This document shows positions 13,516 to 62,401 of a stretch of 64,000 bases of DNA, in pieces (within the stretch, counting starts at the first letter, position 1; the number at the start of each line of letters is the position of its first letter). The DNA lies in the NCBI GenBank assembly GCA_934098505.1, contig CAKOOR010000006.1, positions 19,655 through 83,654 of the forward strand. The letters run 5' to 3'. A program made the position numbers and the translations under genes. This DNA comes from an uncultured Bacilli bacterium (GTDB taxonomy: Bacteria; Bacillota_I; Bacilli_A; RF39; UBA660). The notes under the pieces were generated by a model. That model was not told where the DNA came from, searched no databases, and was given only the letters and a program-made list of their open reading frames with translations.

Positions 13516-14285
13516 AATTCTATAATCTCCGATTTTTCATTTTGTTTAGCGCAACTAATATTTTCAAAATCAATTCCATACTCTAAAAATATATTTTTTA
13601 TAGTATCTAAAGCTTTTTCTTCCGTATTATTTTCATGAGATAAGTGGAGTAAAATTATTTTTTTAGTGTTATTGCCAACTAATTTAGCCAAATAGATACT
13701 TGCATCTTTATTAGATAAATGTCCATAAGGGCCAACTACCCTATCTTTTAACCAAGCTGGATACTTTCCGTTTAATAACATTTCTACATCATGATTACTT
13801 TCAAAAAGATAAACAGTTTTGTTTCTTAAAACATTAAAATATTTTTGATTTAAATATCCAGTATCAGTCAAGTAAACAACACTATTTCTTCCCTCACTTA
13901 AAACATACCCTTTAGAATCTTTTGTATCATGACTAGTTTTTATAACTGCAATTTTTACATCATCTAAATAAATATCATCATCAAAAAGAACTAAATGTTC
14001 ATACCTGTTAATAAAACTATCATTGCTTAATTCATCTATCATTCCTATTGTCATATATACGTTGGCTTGATATTTTTTTATATAATTTTCTAATGCTCCA
14101 ATATGATCACTATGCACATGTGAAATAAGAATGGTATCGATATCATTTAAAGAAACGCCTAATTCTTCTAAGCGTTCCTTTATGTAGCCAACATTCGTCC
14201 CTATATCCAATAATATTTTATGATTCTTTGTTTCAACATAAGTTGAATTTCCTTTAGAACCACTTGCTAAAACACAGATTCTCAT
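13512..14285 (-). CDS. MBL-fold metallo-hydrolase, YycJ/WalJ-like
   Basis: 257 aa. MRICVLASGSKGNSTYVE at the N-terminus and an HVHSDHIG motif. Confidence 0.8.
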   Translation of the reverse strand: MRICVLASGSKGNSTYVETKNHKILLDIGTNVGYIKERLEELGVSLNDIDTILISHVHSDHIGALENYIKKYQANVYMTIGMIDELSNDSFINRYEHLVLFDDDIYLDDVKIAVIKTSHDTKDSKGYVLSEGRNSVVYLTDTGYLNQKYFNVLRNKTVYLFESNHDVEMLLNGKYPAWLKDRVVGPYGHLSNKDASIYLAKLVGNNTKKIILLHLSHENNTEEKALDTIKNIFLEYGIDFENISCAKQNEKSEIIEL

Positions 14286-15802
14286 TATTTATATAGCGTC
14301 ATAGGGTTAATCGCTTTACTTCCCTTCGTATAAGGTACACCAGTCCAGAAACCTAAATGCAAGTGTGTTCCAGTAACTTGACCAGTTTTACCCATTGCCC
14401 CTATTTTCTGTGCTCTACTTACTTGTTGACCCCTTGAAACATAAACAGCAGACATATGTCCATAAATAGAGTAATATCCATTTGGGTGTTGAATAATAAC
14501 GTTGGTACCAATCGTCCAAGTACCTGGACCATTAGGTCCTGCATGAATAACTGTACCAGCTGCAATAGCAAATATTGGAGAACCATAGCCGGTACCAGAA
14601 ATGTCTAATCCATCATGACTAGAACGATTAAACAAATATCTCTTACCAAAACCAGATGTAATCATATACCCTGGCAACGTTGGCCAAGCATATTCAGTAC
14701 CATCATCAACATAATTGCCCCAGTTACCACTACTAGCAACTTTTTTACCTTTAACAATAACTTCATTTACTGTTTCCCTTACTACATAAGTATTTTCCTT
14801 ATCAATTACAACTTGTTGACTAGCATCACCATTAATAACCTGGGTACGAGAAGCAACACGTCTAATACCATTAACACCTTTGGTTTGAACTAAACGATAA
14901 CTTGTATCTTTAGAATAATCGTATTTTGTTTCGGTTGAATATTTCTCTTCAACATCAGCCACTATATATTTATCATATACTAATTGTAACATTGGGTTAA
15001 TTAATGATATAACCACAGTATCACCAACCGCCAACAAATCATTTTCACTTTTGTATTTTGGGTTGGCTACTAAAAACTCAGAAACATTTAACTCATTAGC
15101 TTCAGCAATACTAGCTATCGTATCACCCACTTTGACTGTATATAATGATTCTTTATTATCAGTTCCAAATAACAAATATTTACTTAAACTATCAACATCT
15201 GTAAATATTTTTTCATCTGTACTTATGTATGATTCTTTGATAGAAATATCCTCTTGAAAATAAATATTTTCAATTCTTTCACCAACACCAACTATTTCTT
15301 TTTGTTCATTATTTATATAAGCCAAATATTCATCTTCAGGAATAAATGACAAAATAACCTTTTTTATCGCCTCTTCAAACACTTGCTCATCTAAAACATT
15401 AATTTTAAATAATACTTTAGAATCACCATCATTTTCTTTACTACTAACGGTAATTGTATATCCTTTAATGGTAAAATTCTTTGATTCTTTAATTTTATCA
15501 TATATCTCATTTACGCTTGAAACATTTGAATTATAAGTATTTAATTTTGTGATTGAAAAGCCCTTTGGGGGATATACTTGCTCAACATTATATTCTTCTT
15601 TAATGCTTGATTGCTCTTCATTAATAAGATTATATAAATCGTCTTGACTATCAATCATACCTATTTTTTCGCCATTTAAGTATACTTGATAAACCCCGTC
15701 TACTTCATCAGCATAACTAGTTTTATAAGAAGTAGCAATAAACATTGCGACTCCAAATATCATAGTTGTTAAAATGCATAGAATTTGTGTTTTTTTACTC
15801 AT
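14285..15802 (-). CDS. M23 family metallopeptidase with LysM and G5 domains
   Basis: 505 aa. N-terminal TM, LysM (YTVKVGDTIASIAEANELNVSEFL), a G5-like segment (TKGVNGIRR...VIVKG), and an M23 domain (HDGLDISG...GTHLHLG). Confidence 0.8.
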   Translation of the reverse strand: MSKKTQILCILTTMIFGVAMFIATSYKTSYADEVDGVYQVYLNGEKIGMIDSQDDLYNLINEEQSSIKEEYNVEQVYPPKGFSITKLNTYNSNVSSVNEIYDKIKESKNFTIKGYTITVSSKENDGDSKVLFKINVLDEQVFEEAIKKVILSFIPEDEYLAYINNEQKEIVGVGERIENIYFQEDISIKESYISTDEKIFTDVDSLSKYLLFGTDNKESLYTVKVGDTIASIAEANELNVSEFLVANPKYKSENDLLAVGDTVVISLINPMLQLVYDKYIVADVEEKYSTETKYDYSKDTSYRLVQTKGVNGIRRVASRTQVINGDASQQVVIDKENTYVVRETVNEVIVKGKKVASSGNWGNYVDDGTEYAWPTLPGYMITSGFGKRYLFNRSSHDGLDISGTGYGSPIFAIAAGTVIHAGPNGPGTWTIGTNVIIQHPNGYYSIYGHMSAVYVSRGQQVSRAQKIGAMGKTGQVTGTHLHLGFWTGVPYTKGSKAINPMTLYK

Positions 15803-23142: not shown

Positions 23143-24987
23143 CTATTTACCAGTTCTAACTGTATAATTGGCACAAGTATTTTTACTATTAATAACATCT
23201 TCAATTACTTCTACACTATCATTTTCCATATATCTTTCTTCTTTTATTTCTCTATATTTTAAAAAGGCAGTATATTTTAATTTAGTAAACTTTTCTAATA
23301 ATCCTTTAATTAAATCTTGATGTTCAACCACCATATCATTAAATTCTCCATCACCTATCATATTTCCATAATAGCAACCTAACTCATAATTAATTTCACT
23401 ATCATTATAACTTAAAAACATAGCCTCAATAGTACTTACATCTACTTTATAAATACTACTTAAAATCTTAAAATAACTCTTTTTTATACTTTCATACTCA
23501 TCTAAAAAGTTAGAATAATAACTACGAACTTCATTAGTTTCCATATAAGAACCATTAACTAAATTACTCATTATTAAATAATATAGAAAAACATTTTCTT
23601 CTAAACTCAACTTATTATTTTTAGTAAATTTATTATTTTTACCTAAAACAACATTAGTATCTCCTTTTAACTCATCAAATCCTACATTATTCTTATTATT
23701 TTTACTATTTAGTAAAACATTATCATTTAATCCTGCTAATTCTAGACTATAATCAATACTTTCTAAATTGTAATTAATTAAACTTCTTAAACTATATTTC
23801 ATAATAGTAATATAATATAAATATTTTATATTATCAGTCATTTTATAAATATCATTATCATCATAACCACTACTTTTATTTGTTAAACTTCTTAAATAAA
23901 TAGTACGATAATTCATACTATTAATAGCATAAATCATTCTTAAAAGTTCTCTTTTTTCTTCTAATGTTGTAGCCCCTAAGAACTCTAAGATTCTATTATT
24001 ATCATGTTTTCTAATCGCATCATAATATTCATCTAAAGTTTTACTATTATCAAAAATAGAACATAAAAACATTTGATTTTCTAAATCACGATATTCTGGA
24101 TAAGTATAATAAAACATATCTGGTTCTTCATCTTTTTTAGTAAATATGCCTAAATTCACTAAACTACTTTCAGCGCTTGCTTCACCTAGAATATTAAAGT
24201 ATTCATCATCAACAACCAATGCCTCTTCTTTTTTACCTTTCTCATCAGCACATATTCCTTGTTCAACATGTCTTAATTCATGACTAACAACTTCATCTAT
24301 CCTAGCTAAAACATCATCTATACTATTCATATCATTTACTAAAAGGGAAATATTTATTCTAATAACATCGTCTTTAGAATTATAATCAGCAAAAGTACTA
24401 TTACCAATATCTGAGCGAGAAAAACCGTCTACTAAAACAATCTTTAAGTTACGATAATTATGAATATTTGAAGCATCACCATTTTTCATAATAAAATCAA
24501 TATTACTTTTAAGAGTTTTTATTATCTGATCTTTAACTTTAATTAAGTTTTCCCCTTCGATATTTAAACCATACTTAGTAGCAAAATGACGATTATTATA
24601 ATAGTAATCACTAAAACAATCATTATAATTTTTATTTTCTAAAATATACTTACTAGTATTATCTTCTATTTGTTTATATATTTCTTCTGATGTATAACTG
24701 TTATTTTCACTACAAGTACCGAAATTTCTATTAAGAAGCTCTTGATATTTTTCTTCACTTAAGCCCATATCGTCTTGTAAGCCTAAATCGTTAGTACTAA
24801 CAAAATAATCTCTTAAGGCATCAGTTAAATTTATTGTATCTTCACTAACACTTGTTTTATCTTTATCATCATTTTTAAAAGAAACAAACGTATCCTTTGA
24901 AAAATTACAAGACATCATATTGACAACAAACGCTAAACATACTAATAAGCTGGCACTCCTCTTATTACTGATACTTATCTTGTTCAT
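23143..24987 (-). CDS. putative secreted HExxH zinc metallopeptidase-like lipoprotein (uncharacterised family, paralog A)
   Basis: 614 aa. Lipobox-like LAFVVNMMSC, HELRH motif (VVSHELRHVEQG), and a downstream GEASAES as a possible third ligand. It is a paralog of 27067..28653. Confidence 0.55.
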   Translation of the reverse strand: MNKISISNKRSASLLVCLAFVVNMMSCNFSKDTFVSFKNDDKDKTSVSEDTINLTDALRDYFVSTNDLGLQDDMGLSEEKYQELLNRNFGTCSENNSYTSEEIYKQIEDNTSKYILENKNYNDCFSDYYYNNRHFATKYGLNIEGENLIKVKDQIIKTLKSNIDFIMKNGDASNIHNYRNLKIVLVDGFSRSDIGNSTFADYNSKDDVIRINISLLVNDMNSIDDVLARIDEVVSHELRHVEQGICADEKGKKEEALVVDDEYFNILGEASAESSLVNLGIFTKKDEEPDMFYYTYPEYRDLENQMFLCSIFDNSKTLDEYYDAIRKHDNNRILEFLGATTLEEKRELLRMIYAINSMNYRTIYLRSLTNKSSGYDDNDIYKMTDNIKYLYYITIMKYSLRSLINYNLESIDYSLELAGLNDNVLLNSKNNKNNVGFDELKGDTNVVLGKNNKFTKNNKLSLEENVFLYYLIMSNLVNGSYMETNEVRSYYSNFLDEYESIKKSYFKILSSIYKVDVSTIEAMFLSYNDSEINYELGCYYGNMIGDGEFNDMVVEHQDLIKGLLEKFTKLKYTAFLKYREIKEERYMENDSVEVIEDVINSKNTCANYTVRTGK

Positions 24988-27066: not shown

Positions 27067-28653
27067 TTATTTTAAAATAAATTTAAAACCATAATTGTTT
27101 TTCCCTTTTTCATTTATTATTGCTAATAAATTATTATAATTAAATTCGCTTAAATAAGTTCCACCATTTACTATACTTTTTATTTTTGGAAATTTATTAA
27201 TTAAATTAGCAACCTTGCTACCATCACTACCTATTACTGTCTTATTTTTAACATAACTAGTTATATCTCCTAACCATTCACTTTTATTTTTTTCGTCATA
27301 ATAATTTTTTATTTCAGTATCACTAAGATTATATATACTAGCTAAATACTCCATAAATATTTCTTCAATCAATTCATAATTTTTAATAAAATCATTATAA
27401 AATGTATAACTAACCTGACTAGTTTTATAATCATAATTACTAAAACTAGCACTATCTAAAATATTTACAAGAATAAAATGATATAATATCAAATTATCAT
27501 CTAAACTTAATTGTTCTTTTGTTATATTATAATTTATTAGAGAAGTAACACTTTGTTTTAGCAAATAACTCTCTACTATTCCTTTTGTATTATCAGTTAA
27601 TAATTCGTTTATATTTGTATTGTTTAAATCTTTAAAATCACTACTACCAATAAGACGACTCCAATAACTACTTCTTACTAATCTGCCATCAATTAACCAA
27701 ATTATACTTAAAAAATCTTTAATATTCTCATCACTATAAACATTAAAATAGTCACAAAAGCTATGCATATTTCCTTTAAATAAAGCTTTATAATAATCAT
27801 CAATTGATGTACTATTATCTAAAAAGCTTAGTAAAAATAACTTACTTTCATATTTTCTTTCTTCTAAATTATTATAACCATAATAAAAGCCACGATTAAT
27901 TGGTTTATAATTATTCTTTAAAACATTATAATTATAAGACTCTGCCATAGCTTCATCTAAAAAAGAAACTCCTACCTCCCCAGGTAACTTATAACTATTA
28001 GTATTATCTTCACAAGGTCGTTCAAACATATGATTAAACTCATGATTAATAGTATCATACAAACTCATATATAAATCATCAGCAGTATTAGCGCTCTTCA
28101 AAATATTATTTAAAGATATTACAATCACATTATCATTTTCAAAATATTCACCAAATTGATCCTTATCTTGAAAATTACCTACTATTATTTTTAATGATAA
28201 TAACTTGTGAACATCATCATTTCTATTTTTATCTAATAGGACATTGCTTAAAATATTTAAAATAATATTTTCAATATAATCACGTATATTTTTCTGTTTT
28301 ATATCACTTATTAATCCATAATTTTCTTTATCCTGAAGATATTTTTTACTATTTAAATTTATAATTTCATATAAATTATCTTTATCTCCATTATAATTAC
28401 AAGTACAAAAAATATTATCTATTTTGCCTATTTTTAATAAATTTTCTAATTCATTATTGTTTAATAAAGTGGTTTTTTCAATATCAAGTTGTATACCATT
28501 AAGTGTATTTAAATAAAAAACATTAGCTTTCTTATCATTACTTGCGGAGGCTTTAACTGTATTATAACCAAAAATGTTTGCTAAAGAAACAATAGATATC
28601 GATAAACAAAGACCTAACGCTGCACCCTTCCTGCTTAAATTTTTTATTATCAT
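27067..28653 (-). CDS. putative secreted HExxH zinc metallopeptidase-like protein (paralog B)
   Basis: 528 aa. Signal peptide, HEFNH motif (TINHEFNHMFERP), and a downstream DEAMAES. It shares blocks with paralog A (LKI(I/V), SLINYN, (D/E)(D/E)YY(K/D)A). Confidence 0.55.
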   Translation of the reverse strand: MIIKNLSRKGAALGLCLSISIVSLANIFGYNTVKASASNDKKANVFYLNTLNGIQLDIEKTTLLNNNELENLLKIGKIDNIFCTCNYNGDKDNLYEIINLNSKKYLQDKENYGLISDIKQKNIRDYIENIILNILSNVLLDKNRNDDVHKLLSLKIIVGNFQDKDQFGEYFENDNVIVISLNNILKSANTADDLYMSLYDTINHEFNHMFERPCEDNTNSYKLPGEVGVSFLDEAMAESYNYNVLKNNYKPINRGFYYGYNNLEERKYESKLFLLSFLDNSTSIDDYYKALFKGNMHSFCDYFNVYSDENIKDFLSIIWLIDGRLVRSSYWSRLIGSSDFKDLNNTNINELLTDNTKGIVESYLLKQSVTSLINYNITKEQLSLDDNLILYHFILVNILDSASFSNYDYKTSQVSYTFYNDFIKNYELIEEIFMEYLASIYNLSDTEIKNYYDEKNKSEWLGDITSYVKNKTVIGSDGSKVANLINKFPKIKSIVNGGTYLSEFNYNNLLAIINEKGKNNYGFKFILK

Positions 28654-34828: not shown

Positions 34829-34916
34829 TTCTAACACATCCAGTCATTACTAACGATTATAGCAAATTATTAAAATTTTTAATAGAATTATGCTAAAATA
34901 ACATTAGGTGATACTT

Positions 34917-35978
34917 ATGACTTCTATATTTACTGATGAAGATACGATAAAACTAATTAATTACATTATTAGTAAAATTAACTTTTATAGTAATTCTTAT
35001 CTTTTAATTAATAATTTAGATTTTTTATACTACCAAGCCGATAAATTTTTTAATATTTTTTTATACTATGACAAAACTTATCAAGACGCAAAGAAAAAAG
35101 GATTAACCAAAATTAGTAAGAACAACCATTATACCCAAATTTCTATTGAAGAAATGTATAACCTAACTCAAGAATTTTTAAATTTTTATCACATTAACCT
35201 TAACATTTCTAACTTAGTTAAAGATAAAAAAATAATTATTAACAATATTAAAGAAAAATTAGAAAATAAAGAAATAACTGATGAAGAGTATAACAATTTA
35301 CGTTTTAATGCTCGCTGTAACAAAGGATTAATTCACTTTAACTATTGCGGTGATATTATCGACTGTGTTGTATTTTTACATGAAATAACTCATCTTCGTA
35401 ATAAACCTTTAGATAACAAAACTCATAGAACAGAAATTAATGATTTTATAACCGAAAGTATAGCCTATGCTGAAGAATTTATTTTTTTAGACTTTTTAAA
35501 AACTAAAGGATATGAAGATGATTATAATAATTATTTATGTGATATTTTCTATAATTGTCTTGTTTTCTCTGATAGAGTCTATTATGTTAATAAAATATTA
35601 TATGTTTATAAAGAAAAAGGTAACATTTCTAAAGATAGTTATACTAGTATTTTTAAAAATCATAAAAATTATGAACCAGCAATTAAAGAACTTTATAAAC
35701 TAATAATAAGTAAAAATTCTTATATTGAACTTATGTGGACTTTTCTAGGATATATCAGTGGTTTATATCTATACATCATGTATTTAGAAGACCATAATTA
35801 TTTTCAAATTGTAGAAGAATTAAATGAGGCTATAACAAATGAAAAATGTACTTGGCAAGATATTTTTAGAATCCTTAAAGTTAATAAACCCGAAGAATTA
35901 TTTAAGATAATGTCTGAAAAAATAGATTATTTCGTAAAAAATGAAACCTTAAAATTAAAAATGCTATCGATTGCTTAA
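34917..35978 (+). CDS. hypothetical cytoplasmic HExxH protein (possible gluzincin-type peptidase)
   Basis: HEITH motif (VVFLHEITHLRNK), with ESIAYAEE about 24 residues downstream. The likely start is ATG at 34917 after AGGTGA. Confidence 0.45.
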   Translation: MTSIFTDEDTIKLINYIISKINFYSNSYLLINNLDFLYYQADKFFNIFLYYDKTYQDAKKKGLTKISKNNHYTQISIEEMYNLTQEFLNFYHINLNISNLVKDKKIIINNIKEKLENKEITDEEYNNLRFNARCNKGLIHFNYCGDIIDCVVFLHEITHLRNKPLDNKTHRTEINDFITESIAYAEEFIFLDFLKTKGYEDDYNNYLCDIFYNCLVFSDRVYYVNKILYVYKEKGNISKDSYTSIFKNHKNYEPAIKELYKLIISKNSYIELMWTFLGYISGLYLYIMYLEDHNYFQIVEELNEAITNEKCTWQDIFRILKVNKPEELFKIMSEKIDYFVKNETLKLKMLSIA

Positions 35979-43776: not shown

Positions 43777-44136
43777 TTATCCTTTGTAAGTTTCATGATT
43801 TTTATCAAACCAAACTATATAAAAGCATTCTTCCTGACGGTAGCCAATTAATCTAAACTTATCCGTTACTCTTAAAGAACCTAAAATTATATCTCTATCT
43901 ATACTATCTGGTTTCTTAAGTTGCTAAATATTTTCAAATTTAAAACTTGGATATATCTTAATTTCTCGCCACAGCAAACTTTCAAACAATTTAGCAAAAT
44001 TTAAGAATGCTTTTAATTCATAAATAGGATATTTATCATGGCAGCTAGAAAACTTCAAGATACCGCACTTGTCATCATTATTATTTTTATTTAAATTATA
44101 ATTAAAACTTTTTTGAACATTAAGCTTATATGTCAT
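43777..44136 (-). pseudogene. toxin-like ORF downstream of the Panacea antitoxin, interrupted by an in-frame TAG
   Basis: A 70-codon ORF overlaps the upstream gene by 11 nt. After TAG at 43924-43926 the same frame stays open for 48 more codons (QLKKPDS...KFRLIGYRQEECFYIVWFDKNHETYKG) up to TAA at 43777-43779. Confidence 0.4.
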
Positions 44137-44599
44137 TTATAACTGTTTTAAAAAACTCTTTCATACTTTCTTTAGTAATTATATTATGACATCTTTCACC
44201 AATCGCACAACCTTTTCTCGCCTTAATCCAAGGTTCTTCTTTATGAGTTTGTTCTTCTAAAAACTTACCATCATAAATACCAAAAGTCTGCCAAATATCA
44301 CTTAAAAATGCACAAATATTATCACTAATATTAATTGTTTCATCAGTTGGACAAGGTATAGAATCAAATCCAAATTTTTTATACTTATTGTATATCCCTT
44401 CATTAGCGGGGCCATGAGCCCAAGCTTCAAAATCTTCAGGAAACAACTCTTTATCATAGTAAGCTAAATAATACCCTTGTGCATAATATAAAATTTTTTG
44501 CAATTTTAATGGTGTTATAGTACTACCTGCATCTCTATCTACTATTTTTAAGAAAAAATTTGCCGCATCAAAAATACTTAAACTATTTTTTCTAAACAT
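44126..44599 (-). CDS. Panacea (DUF4065) domain protein, PanA/SocA-type antitoxin candidate
   Basis: 157 aa. ITPLKLQKILYYAQGYYLAYYDKELFPEDFEAWAHGP matches the DUF4065 core. RBS GGAGG lies upstream. Confidence 0.7.
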   Translation of the reverse strand: MFRKNSLSIFDAANFFLKIVDRDAGSTITPLKLQKILYYAQGYYLAYYDKELFPEDFEAWAHGPANEGIYNKYKKFGFDSIPCPTDETINISDNICAFLSDIWQTFGIYDGKFLEEQTHKEEPWIKARKGCAIGERCHNIITKESMKEFFKTVINDI

Positions 44600-48252: not shown

Positions 48253-48697
48253 TTATTTTATATTATTATTTTCTAAATCAAATTCACTTATATCATCTAA
48301 CATGCCATTACCCGCACCATCTATTATACTTGAATAATAAGTCTTATTATTTTCTTTTAACTTTATAGAACCTAAATACTTTATTTTAAATGTTGTCGTA
48401 GATCCAAAGTCATATTCCATTTTCATAGTATTATTATCATTTAATCCTATATTGCTTAATATACTTTGAATAGCATCTAATGCTATTTCATGATCAAACA
48501 ATAAATCATCATATATATAACAGTTATACTCTCTATCTTTATAAGTAATAACTATAAAAATGATATGCTAATGAATTAAAACTAGCTAGTATACTATAGG
48601 CTAAATCGCCTATAGTCATCTTATCTGTAACTTCTATTACTCCCCATTTTTTATCTTCTAATTTATTTATTCCTACTTTAAACATTAATACTTTCAT
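48253..48697 (-). pseudogene. frameshifted pRiA4b ORF-3-like (PF07929-like) gene
   Basis: The N-terminal piece from ATG 48697 (MKVLMFKVGINKLEDKKWGVIEVTDKMTIGDLAYSILASFNSLAYHFY) stops early. The C-terminal piece (YDFGSTTTFKIKYLG) continues in another frame. The frames switch near the T5 run in CATTTTTAT around 48545. Confidence 0.5.
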
Positions 48698-48857
48698 ACA
48701 CATTCCCTTCATTCCACCCTTATAGTAATATCTTTTCTTCTAAAAATCAGCTAAAAAATGATAGAAGAACTCCTTCTACCAAGTAAGTAATAGGCGTGGT
48801 CGCTAAACGATAATTCATTTGGCGACCTCTCTGCCTCGCATTAATTATCCTAAATGC

Positions 48858-50456
48858 TTACGCATGAAACGGTTCAGATGCCGTCCCATTGCCATTATTT
48901 AGAATCTCAGAGCTTAGATTTAAAACTGGACGGGCACCAAGCCTGTTGCCGACACGGTTGCTGATACCGTCCATGCTACCCGCAAAGCCGGTTGAAAGCA
49001 CAATATACTCTTGAGCACTGTTATAATCGAAGGAATCGGACGACATAGTCCAATAAGTTTGTCCAGAGTATAAATAATAATTTGAATTATTTGAATTCCA
49101 ACCACCCGCTAAAACTACCTCATCAGCCGTAACAAGGCCAATACCATAAGTAAGAGCTCCGTTCCCTTTGCTAGTATCACTAACTGTAAAAGCATCATTT
49201 TTTTGTGGACACGTTAACATCATTTTATTATTATAAGAACTATATGCAAAATTATGCCAGCGATATGACGTTTCCTCAGTACCGTAGCCTTTAGTGCTCC
49301 AACCACTTAGCATATTGCTACTTAAAGAACGATCGTTACAAAATAAATTATCTTTAACATATTGTTCATTGGTTATGCCTTTAATATTATTTTCATACCA
49401 CGTATCAAGATAAGTCTTAATATCAGAGCTATTAGTATTAGTTTGAGCTTTATCTTTACTTGTTGTTCCATAAGTAACATAACTATAACCAATGGTTGCC
49501 CTTGATGAACCTGCTGTAACACTAGTAATTTTATAAATATATTGATTAGAAGTACTAGAACTTGTTCCGTTAAAAGTATAGTAACCAATATAATCACTTG
49601 TCATGGAATTTCCAAGTACGGCAATCGGATTTTTCAAAGTAAATTTATCTGTTGAAGCATTATAACTATATTCCTTAGCAATATAATAAGTACTAGTATT
49701 TGTATAAGATGAAGTAGAATATTGAGTTGATTGTTCAACTATACCATCTCTATTACCATACATGTAACCAAAACCAGCATTATCATTTAAAACGTATGAA
49801 TTAGCACTTTCCTTAACATTATCCTTTTTCCAGTAATAATTAAAACTAGTAGTCCCTATTTGTCTATCGACACTCGCATCATTATTGGCATGAGCTACTG
49901 TTCCATCATATATAACTCTTACTGTTCCGTCACCATTATATCTTATAATACGCCAATATTTCCCAGCAAATAAGACATAATTATTGGTTACATTACCACG
50001 GTAATAATACGAGTCCCCATAAACATCTTTAGCTCTACATAAATAACCATAAGTATCTTCTGCTCTAGTTACGGTTACAGTGCCATCACTATTCATTGTT
50101 GGGCATCTTCCCATTTCATCTAAATAAAATTTTTTATCAGCTAGTGTAAAACTTTCTAAACTTTTAAAATAAATATTACATCTACTTCTTATCCCCCAGT
50201 TAGAAAGTTTTATTCCCCACTTACCATAATCCCAACTAGCATTCTTATTATTATCACATACTATTTTATCTACAGCATATCCACTACCTTTAGTTGGTAA
50301 AATTTCAGAATAAGTACCATTAATATATGCACCAATTAACGGCTCTTCTTTTGGAATAGAATTATAATAAGTAATACATAGTCCAATAATTGCAAATGCA
50401 CTAACTAAGCCAGATATTATAATATATTTTCTTTTTTTATTTTTAAATATTTTCAT
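48858..50456 (-). CDS. membrane-anchored surface protein, paralog 1, with a variable-region-like GC-rich C-terminal segment
   Basis: 532 aa. N-terminal TM and conserved blocks shared with 51013..52356 (YYYRGNVTNNYV.FAG.YWRIIR.NGDGTVRVIYDG, MMLTCPQKNDAFTV). It ends ...LGARPVLNL...NNGNGTASEPFHA. Confidence 0.6.
   Translation of the reverse strand: MKIFKNKKRKYIIISGLVSAFAIIGLCITYYNSIPKEEPLIGAYINGTYSEILPTKGSGYAVDKIVCDNNKNASWDYGKWGIKLSNWGIRSRCNIYFKSLESFTLADKKFYLDEMGRCPTMNSDGTVTVTRAEDTYGYLCRAKDVYGDSYYYRGNVTNNYVLFAGKYWRIIRYNGDGTVRVIYDGTVAHANNDASVDRQIGTTSFNYYWKKDNVKESANSYVLNDNAGFGYMYGNRDGIVEQSTQYSTSSYTNTSTYYIAKEYSYNASTDKFTLKNPIAVLGNSMTSDYIGYYTFNGTSSSTSNQYIYKITSVTAGSSRATIGYSYVTYGTTSKDKAQTNTNSSDIKTYLDTWYENNIKGITNEQYVKDNLFCNDRSLSSNMLSGWSTKGYGTEETSYRWHNFAYSSYNNKMMLTCPQKNDAFTVSDTSKGNGALTYGIGLVTADEVVLAGGWNSNNSNYYLYSGQTYWTMSSDSFDYNSAQEYIVLSTGFAGSMDGISNRVGNRLGARPVLNLSSEILNNGNGTASEPFHA
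48927..49046 (-). repeat. VR-like segment 1 (40 codons, ATG TCG TCC ... CGT CCA)
   Basis: Homologous to 50774-50866 and 51082-51192. It is locally GC-rich in an AT-rich genome. Confidence 0.6.
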
Positions 50457-50761
50457 AGTTAATATATCTCCTATTAATTTATAAGTATTTAGAATTATGT
50501 TTTCACATAACTCTAAATACTACCAACATAGTATCTAACTTTTAAATTACGTCTAAAAGTATCTATGTTATATGTTCGGTTTAATTACAACTGATTTATC
50601 ATTTTTTCCAATCTAATACTAGATTATCTTATAAAAGTTCGGTAACATCTTTATTCTGTTTAAAAGCAATAAATAGTTATTTATCCCTAGTTCTAAAAGA
50701 TTATTTCTTACAATAAAAAGCCTTAGCCGTTTATTTTGAGTGCCATAGATTTTAATCTATC

Positions 50762-50866
50762 TTAGCAGGAATCTGGACGGGACCCATTAGTGTTGTTGTC
50801 TGCATTGCCGTTTGAATTCGCATTATGCTCATTAGCATTGTTACCATTGAAGTAATTAGGCGACAC
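50762..50866 (-). other. TR-like AAY-rich fragment homologous to the C-terminal segments of the two flanking paralogs
   Basis: GTG TCG CCT AAT TAC TTC AAT GGT AAC AAT GCT AAT GAG CAT AAT GCG AAT TCA AAC GGC AAT GCA GAC AAC AAC ACT AAT GGG TCC CGT CCA GAT TCC TGC TAA. 13 of the 31 aligned codons are AAT/AAC. A stop lies two codons upstream, so it is not part of a long gene. Confidence 0.6.
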
Positions 50867-51012
50867 GTCTTAAAAGAACAAACAATAGTTTATAGGACAA
50901 ACCAACTTTATATAATATTACTAACTCTATTATATCATATAAAGATTTTCGCCACGGCCAAATGATGATTCATTTGACGACCTATCTGCCTCGCATTAAG
51001 TTTTCTAAATGC

Positions 51013-52356
51013 TTACGCATGATATGGATTACTTGCCGTTCCATTGCCATTATTCAGAATTTCAGACTTCAGATTGAAAACTGGACGGGCACCAAGACTG
51101 ACGAAGACGGCGCCGTCGCTGCCCACAAGGCCGTCCGAACTCACGTAACGCTCAAGAGTGCCGTCTTCATCGTCGAAGCGATCAGGAGACATTGTCCAAT
51201 AATATTCACCATTATATAAATAATAGTTGTAATTTCTTGAACTCAAACTACCAGCTAAAACTACTTCATCAGTTGTAACAAGGCCAATACCATAAGTAAG
51301 GGTCCCGTTACCTTTACTAATATCAGTTACGGTAAAAGCATCATTCTTTTGTGGACACGTTAACATCATCTTATTGTTGTTAACATTAGATGAAAAATTA
51401 TACCAACGATAATCTGTTATGCTAGTTCCCGCACCCGCACCACTATTATTCGGTGCAAAGCTTCTATCATTACAGAAAAGATTATCGGCAATATACTGTT
51501 CATTAGTGGTACCTTTAATATTATTTTCGTACCATGTATCTAAATAAGTCTTAATAGTTGAATTATTAGTATTAGCATGAGTTTCTTCATAACTTGATGA
51601 ACCTGCGGTTCCATACATATAACCAATATAAGCATTATCATCACACTTATCATTAAACGCACTTGTTCCAATTATTCTATCACTACTTGACTCACCATTG
51701 ACATGAGCACTCTTACCATCATATATAACTCTTACCGTACCATCGCCATTAACGCGAATAATACGCCAATAAAAGCCAGCAAATTTAACATAATTATTAG
51801 TAACATTTCCTCGATAATAATAACTAGTACCATAAGCATCCTTCATACTACATAAATAACCATATTTACTTTCAGCCTCAGTAACCGTTGCTGTGCCATC
51901 TGCATTTACTGTTGGACAAAGTCCATAATCATCTAATGGAACTGCCACATTACCAATGTTTATTTTCTCAACATCCACAAAATAAATGTTACATTTACTT
52001 CTTTTCGTTACATTAGATATTGTTGGTCCCCAATCTTTGGCGCTCCACTCACCAACTGCACCATTATCACAAACTATTTTATCAACCTTATAACCAGTTG
52101 CTTGAGCTGGAGCATCTTCAACTAATTGACCATTGACATAATTATTAATAACAACATCGCCTCTTATAAATGGTGCAACTGTCGCTCTTACAACTTCTTG
52201 CTCTTGAGTAACAAAAAATTTAGAATAAGCAAAATAAATACCTAATATTCCGCATAAAATACATGGAACACCAATATAAAAATACCGCGAATTACTCTGC
52301 CAAAATCGTTTTAATTTTAGTTTTTTTAAATATTTATCCTTATTAAATTTTTTCAT
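51013..52356 (-). CDS. membrane-anchored surface protein, paralog 2, with a variable-region-like GC-rich C-terminal segment
   Basis: 447 aa. Same architecture as paralog 1. It ends ...LGARPVFNL...NNGNGTASNPYHA. Confidence 0.6.
   Translation of the reverse strand: MKKFNKDKYLKKLKLKRFWQSNSRYFYIGVPCILCGILGIYFAYSKFFVTQEQEVVRATVAPFIRGDVVINNYVNGQLVEDAPAQATGYKVDKIVCDNGAVGEWSAKDWGPTISNVTKRSKCNIYFVDVEKINIGNVAVPLDDYGLCPTVNADGTATVTEAESKYGYLCSMKDAYGTSYYYRGNVTNNYVKFAGFYWRIIRVNGDGTVRVIYDGKSAHVNGESSSDRIIGTSAFNDKCDDNAYIGYMYGTAGSSSYEETHANTNNSTIKTYLDTWYENNIKGTTNEQYIADNLFCNDRSFAPNNSGAGAGTSITDYRWYNFSSNVNNNKMMLTCPQKNDAFTVTDISKGNGTLTYGIGLVTTDEVVLAGSLSSRNYNYYLYNGEYYWTMSPDRFDDEDGTLERYVSSDGLVGSDGAVFVSLGARPVFNLKSEILNNGNGTASNPYHA
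51082..51192 (-). repeat. VR-like segment 2 (37 codons, ATG TCT CCT ... CGT CCA)
   Basis: Very GC-rich and adenine-poor on the coding strand (for example GGC AGC GAC GGC GCC GTC TTC GTC). It is GC-rich enough to create a spurious antisense ORF (50962..51219). Confidence 0.6.
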
Positions 52357-58865: not shown

Positions 58866-60791
58866 TTAATTAATAGCAATACCATTTACATAAAGTTTAT
58901 ATCCATTAAAATCAATATTACTATTAGAACTATCTTCATTATTTAACGAAGTAATATAACTATTTCCTGTTAATTTAATTTTTGAAGTCTTATCTAAAGT
59001 TAAACTTATACTTTTAGCACTATTATCGCCATTTATTGTACCTTCATAAGAAGAATTATTACTTAAAGCCATACTAAGAGTAGATATAGAATCCACAACA
59101 ATATTACCAGTAGCTTTTTGATTCTTTAAATTTAAAGTAACATCGCCTCCATTTGAGCCACTATTTCCCCATGAGTCCTTTTGAACTCTTAAGAAATTAC
59201 CAGTAGAATCGTTATTAACAATAGTATTATTCTCTAGAGTAATTGTTGCTTTAGTATTAGTTACATATAAAGTATCACCTTTATTAGTAGTTATCTTACT
59301 ATTACTAGCCTTAAATACCGCAACGCCAGTATCAGCATCCCCACTCATCGATTGATAGAGGAAGATATTTTTATAAGTGGTTGACTGGCCATTAAGTTTA
59401 TTATTTGTATCTACTAAAGTTACGTTATCTAAAGTTACGGAGTTTTTACCTTCAATCACAACACCTTCTGAGGCCGTTGCTTTTAAAGTAGCGTTTTTTA
59501 CGGTAATATTGGCTGTTGAGTAAACAGCCGGTGATCCTTGACCAGTTGTCGTATAAGTACCACCATCAACATTTACAGTACCACCACCACGATCACTTCG
59601 AATAGCAGCACTGGAAGTTCCGGCGGTATTAATTTCTAAATCAGTCGCATTCATTACACCACCACCAGTAGTCATAATACCACCAGAATTATCTTTAGTT
59701 GTAGTAATTTTTGAATTACTGATATTTACCGTTGTGCCATCACTACTAGAATTACTAGTTGTTGCGGAACCACCATAAGAGAACACACCATTCGCGCCGG
59801 TTGCTTCGGTTGTAATAGTAGAATTTTCAATATTTAAAGTAGCGCCGTCTTTAGCTATAACAGCGGAGTTAGTACCATAAAAACTAGTACTATCACCACC
59901 ATCAGAATCGCCAGTCTTTGTAACTGTTACATTACTAATATCAGCGGTTGTATCGCCACTAACACTAATCGTATTTTCATCACTACTAGTAGAAGTGTAA
60001 GTACCATCAGTAATGGTAATGTCGCTGGTTATTTCTTTTGCCGCACTGTAGCTAGCATTATTATTACCTCCGTTCATTTCGCCCATACCAGGGTTACCAG
60101 AATTACTACTATTATTACTTAAAGAATTATTTGTTAGCACAATACTACTTGTTGATAAAACACCAGTTAAAACAATTACTCCTAAAACGTTAATCATCAC
60201 ATTATCTTTATTAGTAAATGTTTCTTTAAAACTCTTTTTGTTAAATTCTGACATAATTAAATCCATAACTAGTAAAGCAATACCCAAACTACTTGAGATA
60301 AATATTAAATAATAAGGCCATGTTATGCTATTAGCATTCCGACTAAAATTCATATCGTTTGGCATACTTGGGGGAGTACTACCATTACTTGAATTACCAT
60401 TACTTGGCATACCGTTCATTCCATTATTATTTGAGCTATTACTGTTGCTAAAATTTTGACTATCATCAGGTTTAGCAGAAGAAGTTCCATCATCATCACT
60501 AGGCTTTTCAGATGGTGTACCTTGATTACTATTTTGATTACCACCTGTGTTATTATCTGGTGGTGTCATATCATTACTACCATTTGGTTTTTCTGGCATA
60601 CCATTTGAATCATTACCATTATTGCTAGAACCAACAGGCATACTTGGGGGAGTACTACCATTCATACTAGTAAAAATATTATCAGTAATATGCTTCTTAG
60701 CATAACTATAAGTAAAAACCATACACATACTTAGTAAAGCAATAACTGCTACCATTAATACATTCTTTACATTTCTTTTCATATAATCCAA
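58866..60791 (-). CDS. beta-helix carbohydrate-binding-domain protein (Cthe_2159-like) with N/G/S-rich linker
   Basis: 641 aa. Two TM segments bracket a low-complexity region. T/S/G/N-rich repeats follow (ISNVTVTKTGDSDGG..., TLNIENSTITTEATGANG...), typical of parallel beta-helix. Confidence 0.55.
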   Translation of the reverse strand: MDYMKRNVKNVLMVAVIALLSMCMVFTYSYAKKHITDNIFTSMNGSTPPSMPVGSSNNGNDSNGMPEKPNGSNDMTPPDNNTGGNQNSNQGTPSEKPSDDDGTSSAKPDDSQNFSNSNSSNNNGMNGMPSNGNSSNGSTPPSMPNDMNFSRNANSITWPYYLIFISSSLGIALLVMDLIMSEFNKKSFKETFTNKDNVMINVLGVIVLTGVLSTSSIVLTNNSLSNNSSNSGNPGMGEMNGGNNNASYSAAKEITSDITITDGTYTSTSSDENTISVSGDTTADISNVTVTKTGDSDGGDSTSFYGTNSAVIAKDGATLNIENSTITTEATGANGVFSYGGSATTSNSSSDGTTVNISNSKITTTKDNSGGIMTTGGGVMNATDLEINTAGTSSAAIRSDRGGGTVNVDGGTYTTTGQGSPAVYSTANITVKNATLKATASEGVVIEGKNSVTLDNVTLVDTNNKLNGQSTTYKNIFLYQSMSGDADTGVAVFKASNSKITTNKGDTLYVTNTKATITLENNTIVNNDSTGNFLRVQKDSWGNSGSNGGDVTLNLKNQKATGNIVVDSISTLSMALSNNSSYEGTINGDNSAKSISLTLDKTSKIKLTGNSYITSLNNEDSSNSNIDFNGYKLYVNGIAIN

Positions 60792-61390: not shown

Positions 61391-62401
61391 CTAGCACTTT
61401 CTTATTTTTTCTATTTCCTCTACTGAAAGACCAGTTATCTTAGATATGGTTTCATTATCTAGGCCTAGGCCGATAGCATTTTTAGCATTTTCAGAGGCTT
61501 TTTCTTTAGAACCTTGTTCAATACCTTGTTCGATACCTTTTTCTATTCCTTCTTCTACACCGTCTTTATAACGCTTTTTTGCATCTCTTTCGGCTTCGGC
61601 AAGTCTAGTATTAAAGGCCATTTCTTCATTGCTAAGTTTCGTAAATAAAGCAATATTTTCTTTATCACAAGATAACTCTTCGATGCGGTAAATTAATTTT
61701 TCAGCATCTTCTTTTCCCATAATTTCTTCTGCCTTTCTTTTAAAAGTTTCTAAATCATTTGTATTCATTAAAATACACCAATTAGCAACCTTTTTTTCTC
61801 TCTCATCAATTAGATTATACCATGGGTTAAGAGCAAAATTAACAGAAATCGTATAAAAAATATCGTCCCAGCCAGTATCAATAATATTATCTTGATCTTT
61901 CATTTGACTAATTGAAACTAATCTTAATTTATTAGTATCAAAAAAATCGAAATTCACTTGGACTAAGCGGTCAATATTATCATAAGTATTATCTCCTACA
62001 TCTAAAGAAAAACTACCAATTTTATTACTATAAACCTTATTTCTTCTTAACATAGAATTAGAAGTATTTATTTCCACATTAATATATTCTTCTTCTTCAT
62101 CACCGTCTTCATTAAACATTTTATGTTTAATAAGCAAATCTACTTTATTTAACATATTCTTTTTATTAGAATTCTTTAAATCTCTATTTAAGTATCTTAT
62201 ATTACCAATAAATACCTCTTTTTTAATACTTAATACATCTGATAATAATTGATAAAGGACAAAATCATAGTCTTCATCATTAAATATTTGGGTAAACATA
62301 AAATCTTGTTTTAAGGGAATTATCTGACTCTCTGATAACTTATCTATTCTTACATTCTTCCTTTCTTTTTTTAAATTTTCTTTATTTATTTCTAATGACA
62401 T
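61391..62401 (-). CDS. Rpn/YhgA-like PD-(D/E)XK recombination-promoting nuclease (putative transposase family)
   Basis: 336 aa. N-terminal PLKQDFMFTQIF and a characteristic C-terminus (EEGIEKGIEQGIEQG...ISKITGLSVEEIEKI). Confidence 0.65.
   Translation of the reverse strand: MSLEINKENLKKERKNVRIDKLSESQIIPLKQDFMFTQIFNDEDYDFVLYQLLSDVLSIKKEVFIGNIRYLNRDLKNSNKKNMLNKVDLLIKHKMFNEDGDEEEEYINVEINTSNSMLRRNKVYSNKIGSFSLDVGDNTYDNIDRLVQVNFDFFDTNKLRLVSISQMKDQDNIIDTGWDDIFYTISVNFALNPWYNLIDEREKKVANWCILMNTNDLETFKRKAEEIMGKEDAEKLIYRIEELSCDKENIALFTKLSNEEMAFNTRLAEAERDAKKRYKDGVEEGIEKGIEQGIEQGSKEKASENAKNAIGLGLDNETISKITGLSVEEIEKIRKC

Follow-up and report, generated by a model that had tools for sequence, protein, structure and literature searches.

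The stretch of DNA analysed here (64,000 nucleotides from an uncultured Bacilli bacterium, hereafter the window) contains, between two paralogous genes for surface proteins, a short non-coding repeat with the features of the template repeat (TR) of a diversity-generating retroelement (DGR). Each flanking gene carries a variable region (VR) in its 3' end that differs from the template preferentially at adenines, and no reverse transcriptase (RT) gene is found in cis. The locus is probably a non-autonomous DGR cassette, with a putative promoter, the TR, a predicted structured RNA and two VR targets, whose cDNA would be made by a DGR-type RT encoded elsewhere. An earlier note, made from the letters of the window alone, had proposed a DGR-type template with two adenine-mutagenised VRs and no RT in cis, and this proposal is supported, more strongly by the relatives of the window than by the window itself.

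The cassette lies on the minus strand in the order gene A (52356..51013), TR (50866..50772) and gene B (50456..48858). Gene A is an open reading frame (ORF) of 447 aa encoding a membrane-anchored, DUF6273-like surface protein, and gene B (532 aa) is its paralog. The C-terminal 214 aa of the two products are 65% identical and a stretch of 199 N-terminal aa is 54% identical, and both present an N-terminal hydrophobic helix. VR_A (51082..51190, minus strand) runs from TCTCCT to CGTCCA with 60% GC and 14% A, and VR_B (48927..49044, minus strand) has 52% GC and 21% A, in a window with 27% GC as a whole and in genes that outside the variable segments have 34-36% A and 30-32% GC. The VR ends lie 66 nt ahead of the stop codons in both genes, and a conserved tail (G-A-R-P-V-x-N-L ... 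NNGNGTAS) follows the variable segment. The TR (50772..50866 including GTG, minus strand) is non-coding and contains 34% A and 12 AAY codons. A VR placed in the 3'-terminal part of its target ORF and a non-coding TR with AAY codons are both features by which DGRs are recognised. The homology between the TR and the VRs ends in both at the GC-rich (G)CCCGTCCAG, which may be an IMH-like boundary element, and after it the sequences diverge.

Most of these features had been described in the earlier note and were recovered. The two membrane-anchored paralogs are present as ORFs on the minus strand, the segment at 51082-51192 has 16 A in 111 nt (60% GC) as had been counted by hand, and the second segment, at 48927-49046, has 25 A in 120 nt (52% GC). 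The 31-codon fragment at 50774-50866 contains 32 A in 93 nt and has a TAA stop two codons upstream, but the number of its AAT/AAC codons had to be corrected from 13 to 12. The adenine bias of the fragment towards both paralogs was also reproduced. In gapped global alignments, the window TR and VR_A mismatch at 20/32 A and 12/58 non-A positions with 18 gap columns (Fisher p = 1e-4), and the TR and VR_B at 15/32 A and 11/58 non-A positions with 27 gap columns (p = 0.006). The in-frame indels that separate the TR from VR_A (6 codons) and from VR_B (9 codons, by which VR_B exceeds the resident TR) are as claimed.

The concentration of mismatches at template adenines, another feature of DGRs, is found in the window and in its relatives. 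In the related loci (numbered with the prefix L), the fragment of each lineage was aligned with its own two flanking gene tails. VR_A of L023 mismatches the TR at 16/41 A and 1/64 non-A positions without gaps, VR_A of L001-L004 at 19/34 and 3/65 with one 3-nt gap, and VR_A of L056 at 19/37 and 3/68 without gaps. In L014, the values are 22/36 A and 7/66 non-A for VR_A (one 3-nt gap) and 20/36 and 7/66 for VR_B (no gaps), and in L054 they are 16/39 and 3/66 for VR_A (no gaps) and 24/37 and 5/65 for VR_B (one 3-nt gap). When the best TR/VR pairs are pooled, those of the window lineage being left out, a template A is the origin of 112 of 144 mismatches (52 A>G, 40 A>T and 20 A>C). Regarding the codon positions of the TR, mismatches are found at 76/203 first, 51/203 second and 17/203 third positions; the changes thus fall on positions 1 and 2 and least on position 3, which is the opposite of neutral drift. 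A DGR detector based on self-comparison recovered the TR/VR pairs as well as the BPP-1 positive control. This generic detector found no second template in any locus, and the paralogs located elsewhere in the same genomes do not match the TR, only the two flanking genes doing so.

Furthermore, substitutions of the TR at non-A positions that are specific to one lineage are mirrored in the VRs of that lineage, for instance CTTG in L013 and L014, GCACGT in L023 and AAT>TAT in L056. Since the lineage-specific substitutions reappear in the VRs, information has flowed from TR to VR after the lineages split. The AAY codons of the TR are kept across species, and the C and T columns, including the third positions of these AAY codons, vary more. 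The TR ranges from 69 to 106 nt among loci through in-frame indels in its AAC run, and the length of the VR often departs from that of the resident TR by 1-9 codons. These length mismatches could reflect homing from earlier versions of the TR or slippage of the RT on the repeat.

The VRs have also been diversified among closely related strains. Across ten protein clusters (>=90% identity), 90 of 340 VR columns are variable versus 385 of 4222 scaffold columns (p = 1e-18), and clusters 2, 4, 5 and 10 contain several very different VR alleles each on near-identical scaffolds. Five VR alleles compared with the TR translation differ at 78/119 codons that contain A and at 1/55 of those without A (p = 1e-17), and the alleles of the CAG:956 species give 93/120 and 10/84. 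The earlier note had suggested checking whether the variation in populations is confined to template-A positions. This is the case in the sister lineages, where the 78/119 and 1/55 codons were counted, but not in the window's own 90% cluster (cluster 3), where none of the 34 VR columns is variable.

Two loci deserve separate mention. In L047 (1224-1313), VR_A is wholly replaced in comparison with L005 within a background of 2034 nt that is otherwise 99.7% identical, with 5 differences before the VR, about 50 inside and 1 after; the resident TR of L047 is a 69-nt deletion variant. In UMGS735 (L015:11357-11690), genes A and B are syntenic and VR_A is GC-rich, and both the TR and the structured RNA are absent from the intergenic region, suggesting a lineage-specific loss of the template.

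Regarding the sequence around the TR, a promoter-like element is located at 50930..50961 on the minus strand (TTGGCC, a 16-nt spacer and TATGAT, overlapping TGATATAAT), identified by its match to the consensus. This putative promoter, with a -10 of the TGnTATAAT type, lies about 75 nt upstream of the TR and is kept in most of the orthologous loci, L013 and L014 being different. On the other side, a predicted structured non-coding RNA of about 260 nt (50524..50784, minus strand) is fused to the 3' end of the TR, and neither an ORF nor an Rfam family was found in it. The prediction contains 13 helices, including a long-range one in which the 3' end of the TR (GTCC, TTCC) pairs with GGAA..GGAT about 170 nt downstream and encloses several hairpins. 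The window sequence folds better than its shuffles (minimum free energy z = -3.2). RNAalifold gave 75 consensus pairs for ten loci, with 97.7% of the cells paired, and 9 pairs are changed on both sides, versus 3.8±1.5 in shuffles (0/500 reaching the value) and at most 4 in slid controls. The intergenic conservation is not taken as a sign of selection, as among close strains it equals the genomic background.

Genes A and B are each followed by a 56-nt element in the 3' untranslated region (UTR). The element after gene A (50957..51012, minus strand) is conserved and has two hairpins, the one after gene B (48802-48857, minus strand) is 86% identical to it, and a terminator-like hairpin with a T run (48759-48781, minus strand) follows the latter. 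The second hairpin of the element has a stem of 7-12 bp and a 4-nt loop, the stem being kept through compensatory changes in relatives, where it reaches 10-12 bp. These stem-loops are located about 105-115 nt downstream of each VR, past the stop codons, and could be the target-recognition hairpin of a DGR or simply a terminator.

Neither of the two genes usually present in a DGR cassette, that of an RT adjacent to the TR and an accessory one, was found here. In the window, a Pfam scan of the two target genes and 47 of the 53 other ORFs of at least 100 aa (49/55, the six unscanned ones all being <170 aa) revealed no RVT family, and scans for the YxDD motif were negative for a DGR RT. The RTs of BPP-1, BalMu-1 and Lagaffe, used in tblastn and in a three-sequence hidden Markov model (HMM), together with their three Avd proteins, gave nothing better than E = 0.4 in 662 kb comprising the window, about 10 kb past each of its edges and the related loci; four further related loci, outside these 662 kb, were screened with the three RT queries only. 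The absence of RT and Avd from the window, as stated in the earlier note, is thus confirmed by Pfam, motif scan, tblastn and HMM. This search is sensitive, since the BPP-1 Brt query finds 130 DGR RTs of phages as diverse as those of Bacillus, Faecalibacterium and Butyrivibrio, crAss-like phages and archaeal viruses. In the window lineage, the TR has no RT for about 23 kb in one direction and about 60 kb in the opposite one. The related loci, more than 15 belonging to at least 8 lineages at the species level, contain no DGR RT within 10 kb where the contig extends that far. Among the genes neighbouring the syntenic cassettes, Pfam recorded no RVT family and none of the accessory families Avd, HRDC, MSL and CH1, the last three having been sought through Pfam only and Avd also with the three queries.

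A different retroelement was found in one strain. In L054 (13381-15288), the beginning of the PRiA4_ORF3 gene is interrupted by a mobile group II intron, complete and about 0.2 kb past the 3' UTR of gene B. It is composed of RF02005 (D1-D4), a 420-aa intron-encoded protein (IEP) with RVT_1 and GIIM domains (13887-15149) and RF00029 (D5-D6), and the IEP presents the motifs QGGLISP and YADD. The empty site corresponds to about 48700-48720 in the window.

According to the reading that we favour, the promoter would drive a non-coding RNA made of the Asn-codon-rich TR and the structured RNA of about 260 nt. A DGR-type RT from elsewhere, either the chromosome, a mobile element or a phage, would copy the TR into cDNA, misincorporating opposite template adenines, and this cDNA would replace the matching stretch in the 3' part of the flanking genes, from ATGTC(G)CC to CGTCCAG. 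Such a replacement would rewrite around 20 ligand-facing codons of the membrane-anchored DUF6273-like surface proteins. Both the transcription of the RNA and its role in recruiting the RT are inferred. The action in trans is mechanistically plausible because VRs more than 100 kb away from their RT are known and avd, TR and brt placed together on a plasmid retarget a VR elsewhere, in an experiment that does not separate the TR from the RT (PMC5758913 and work cited there). The earlier note had offered a distant RT with another template as a possible explanation; the sister strains do require such an RT, but their VRs can be explained without a second template.

Several observations weigh against this interpretation. 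No DGR RT was found in any locus searched, the search having covered loci and not whole genomes, and the key enzyme, an RT acting in trans, is therefore one that we only infer. Many lineages have static VRs (clusters 1, 3, 6, 7 and 8), and the replaced VR_A of L047 does not fit any known TR nor has a donor among the related loci examined. The support for the RNA structure comes from only about three independent lineages, and among closer strains the RNA region is not more conserved than the flanking genome (90-99%). In the window, non-A positions also differ (12/58 in VR_A and 11/58 in VR_B) and, relative to the resident TR, the VRs have 6 and 9 additional codons, which indicates that this TR is not the direct parent of the resident VRs.

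In fact, the window TR lacks 12 nt (CAACAACAACGT, in-frame) which its closest strains, L006 and L009, have. VR_A is explained much better by a 105-nt TR of the L023 type (29/41 A versus 9/64 non-A mismatches, p = 4e-9) than by its own TR, and both VRs of the window derive from older and longer versions of the TR. The differences with the next cluster affect 6 of 31 VR residues versus 10 of 416 scaffold residues. The deletion in the TR, the match of the VRs to an older TR and the absence of VR turnover in close strains indicate that the cassette of the window is old and probably dormant or decaying. The description of the locus as a decayed or orphaned DGR, given in the earlier note as one possibility, is therefore adequate for the window strain and not for the clade.

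The same evidence raises the question of whether the whole system is a fossil, that is, a DGR whose RT was lost and whose TR, RNA and VRs now drift neutrally without any present diversification. The 12-nt deletion in the window lineage points in this direction, as do the window VRs, which are out of register with 19-21% non-A divergence and do not vary among the closest strains (0/34 columns), and the UMGS735 locus, where a GC-rich VR is retained without TR. Wu et al. also report that over half of the candidate DGRs are inactivated (PMC5758913). For the window strain itself this explanation is plausible. Nevertheless, for the clade as a whole it is contradicted by the 95-98% identity of TR and VR at non-A positions in L023, L054 and L056, by VRs that follow the lineage-specific substitutions of the TR, by VRs randomised independently in strains whose proteins are >=90% identical, and by AAY codons of the TR that are kept across species when the C and T columns vary more. 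A fossil is thus considered unlikely. A variant of the cassette hypothesis is held with even more doubt, as a tentative idea: the hosts, gut bacteria with small genomes, would have no DGR RT of their own and the cassette would behave as a "satellite", served when a phage or mobile RT arrives, so that the surface proteins would be re-randomised on infection; a chromosomal RT permanently unlinked from its template is conceivable within the same idea, although more weakly.

The remaining alternatives dispense with a DGR enzyme. The RT could come from a resident retroelement of another kind, such as the group II intron protein encoded beside the L054 cassette, where the intron is complete and very close to gene B. 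However, this intron was found in one strain only and is absent from the window and from L056, L057 and L023, whose TR/VR pairs are equally good or better, and its IEP carries QGGLISP instead of the GxxxSQ of DGR RTs, so the DGR enzyme is not to be sought in it. The RTs of group II introns, moreover, have high fidelity, and adenine-specific misincorporation is known only from the DGR RT acting with Avd. Altogether, an origin of the cDNA in such an element seems highly improbable. Equally hard to accept is that the fragment is a silent cassette for gene conversion, which the earlier note had suggested, or a dead gene fragment beside paralogs that have diverged in the ordinary way. The fragment certainly shares homology with the gene tails and is preceded by a stop, and the whole VR exchanged in L047, in a 99.7% identical background and with no fitting TR, could be a product of recombination. 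Nevertheless, faithful conversion would keep the adenines, and 78% of the mismatches (112/144) start at a template A; this conversion is refuted because the template As change to all three other bases and the non-A bases are kept. Ordinary divergence would favour codon position 3, which is the least changed (17/203), and the A-free codons are nearly invariant among alleles (1/55). The cassette served in trans by a DGR-type RT remains the preferred explanation.

Regarding the target proteins, the proteins A and B of the window gave no Pfam match above the threshold, and a search of the PDB by sequence was also negative. PF19789 (DUF6273) was matched by 15 of 48 family members (best E = 3.4e-6, above the cutoff), in residues 382-432, a match that covers the VR. 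The full-length AlphaFold (AF2) model of the target (pLDDT 70) matched the cryo-EM structure of the T. ramosa IgA peptidase (E = 8e-5), whose N-terminal domain is DUF6273 (PMC12402451), and predicted structures of DUF6273 proteins of gut phages in BFVD (E from 2e-4 to 1e-2). The target proteins are DUF6273-like, with the VR at the C-terminus of the domain. The variable regions of Faecalibacterium prophage DGRs are also the C-terminus of DUF6273 (PMC11792537). The earlier note had assigned the targets to the C-type-lectin variable proteins, and this fold was not confirmed, the lectin domains of CD23 matching the full-length model only with E of about 4-7; a model of the C-terminal part alone had low confidence (pLDDT 38). 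The target family had no sequence match among viral contigs and phage records. Its C-terminal module of about 280 residues in gene A is widespread, with 5958 representatives at 50% clustering, and giant proteins of 2500-4900 aa from metagenomes (P0121, P0122 and P0131) contain 7-19 copies of it.

The window belongs to the core chromosome. It contains dnaB, rplI, ssb, whiA and sporulation genes, and the ribosomal-protein operon, gap/pgk and spo0A are located beyond its edges. More than 6000 homologs of gene A were found in gut metagenomes, and a scan of one genome per GTDB species revealed 35 loci with the family in about 10 metagenome-assembled genomes (MAGs); these MAGs bear the names "uncultured Bacilli", "uncultured Tenericutes UMGS735" and "Mycoplasma sp. 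CAG:956". The target family is multi-copy in each genome, and the TR fragment and the sequence 3' of it are single-copy and occupy a constant site. The gene order at the cassette is a two-component system, gene A, an intergenic region of about 560 nt, gene B and the PRiA4_ORF3 gene. At least 8 related lineages of gut bacteria carry the cassette at this site, and the synteny is kept in the representatives of six GTDB species and in many strains from metagenomes. A k-mer scan of metagenomes gave 4 loci, and the 3 long enough to include both flanking genes are all syntenic. The k-mers of the RNA and the TR had 0 matches in viral contigs. A match of a degenerate TR pattern in a GC-rich phage was due to chance, the phage being unrelated.

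Other genes of the window show features of their own. The PRiA4_ORF3 (PF07929) gene downstream of gene B (48253-48712, minus strand), which is intact (192-206 aa) in L002, L003 and L054, is split in the window into two short ORFs (57 and 82 aa) and is therefore probably a pseudogene. An Rpn-like protein (61391-62401, minus strand), with a weak HTH_Rpn_C match in its orthologs, varies among strains, having 336 aa here and 125 aa in L001, and a protein with a SocA/Panacea antitoxin domain is encoded at 44126-44599 (minus strand). These two genes suggest mobile or defence-related islands inside a region that is otherwise core. Two lipoprotein-like ORFs (23143-24987 and 27067-28653, minus strand) are distant paralogs (24% identical) without Pfam match and carry the HExxH motifs HELRH and HEFNH, respectively; they may be uncharacterised metallopeptidases. 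The ORF at 34908-35978 presents a HEITH motif. Finally, a 641-aa protein (58866-60791, minus strand) without Pfam match, with a low-complexity N-terminal half rich in Ser, Asn and Gly and a repetitive C-terminal half rich in T, S and G, may be another surface adhesin.

The interest of this locus is that a template placed beside its targets stands apart from its putative enzyme, is conserved at one chromosomal site across several species and has been recently active in some strains. It would make it testable how a DGR RT recognises its template RNA in trans, the structured RNA of about 260 nt being the candidate recognition element, and it suggests that two membrane-anchored DUF6273-like proteins serve as diversified surface receptors in a prevalent uncultured gut lineage that includes "Mycoplasma sp. 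CAG:956". The importance of the finding depends on whether, and where, the host genomes encode a DGR RT. If this architecture is general, targeted hypermutation in gut bacteria has been under-counted. The large DGR surveys consulted start from the RT gene and need a repeat close to it, at no more than 1 kb in the case of Roux et al. (2021; PMC8144416), and by this design they cannot see RT-less cassettes; if either the satellite or the unlinked-RT reading were true, an entire class of hypermutated loci would escape them. In a limited search of the literature, no description of RT-less or orphan TRs, or of DGRs in the present clade, was found.

The cassette shares with canonical DGRs (BPP-1, with its mtd-avd-TR-brt order, BalMu-1 and Lagaffe) the non-coding TR, the VR in the terminal 3' part of the target ORF, the A-to-N differences with AAY codons, a structured RNA (here predicted) after the TR and perhaps the GC-rich 3' boundary at which the homology ends. 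In BPP-1, the structured spacer after the TR primes cDNA synthesis. On the other hand, canonical DGRs have avd and the RT within a few hundred bases of the TR, whereas in the present cassette neither gene was found over the distances given above and the TR is located between two chromosomal target genes. The DGRs of the Faecalibacterium prophages Lelie, CP11, Roos and Pioen (PMC11792537) are similar in having the VR at the C-terminus of DUF6273, but their targets are phage proteins in DGR prophages and those described here are cellular, membrane-anchored and encoded in the core chromosome. The silent cassettes of the pilS and vlsE conversion systems differ in that they are donors copied faithfully, while here the As of the donor are replaced and its non-A bases are kept. 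By way of a general analogy, the logic is that of short and long interspersed nuclear elements (SINEs and LINEs), with an RNA template that has a recognition structure, no polymerase gene and a borrowed enzyme; the cassette, however, does not transpose but rewrites two fixed neighbours, and would depend on a partner RT. A further precedent is that of the 10 DGRs with targets more than 100 kb away, for instance in Treponema (Wu et al. 2018, PMC5758913). As is proposed here, the RT of those systems acts in trans on distant VRs, and they are chromosomal and not associated with phages, but the remote part is the target gene, whereas in the present locus it is the TR with its RNA that is unlinked from any RT. 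Remote targets were already known, and the limited search of the literature gave no description of a remote template, such as the one proposed here for a cassette without the adjacent RT and the accessory gene by which surveys recognise a DGR.

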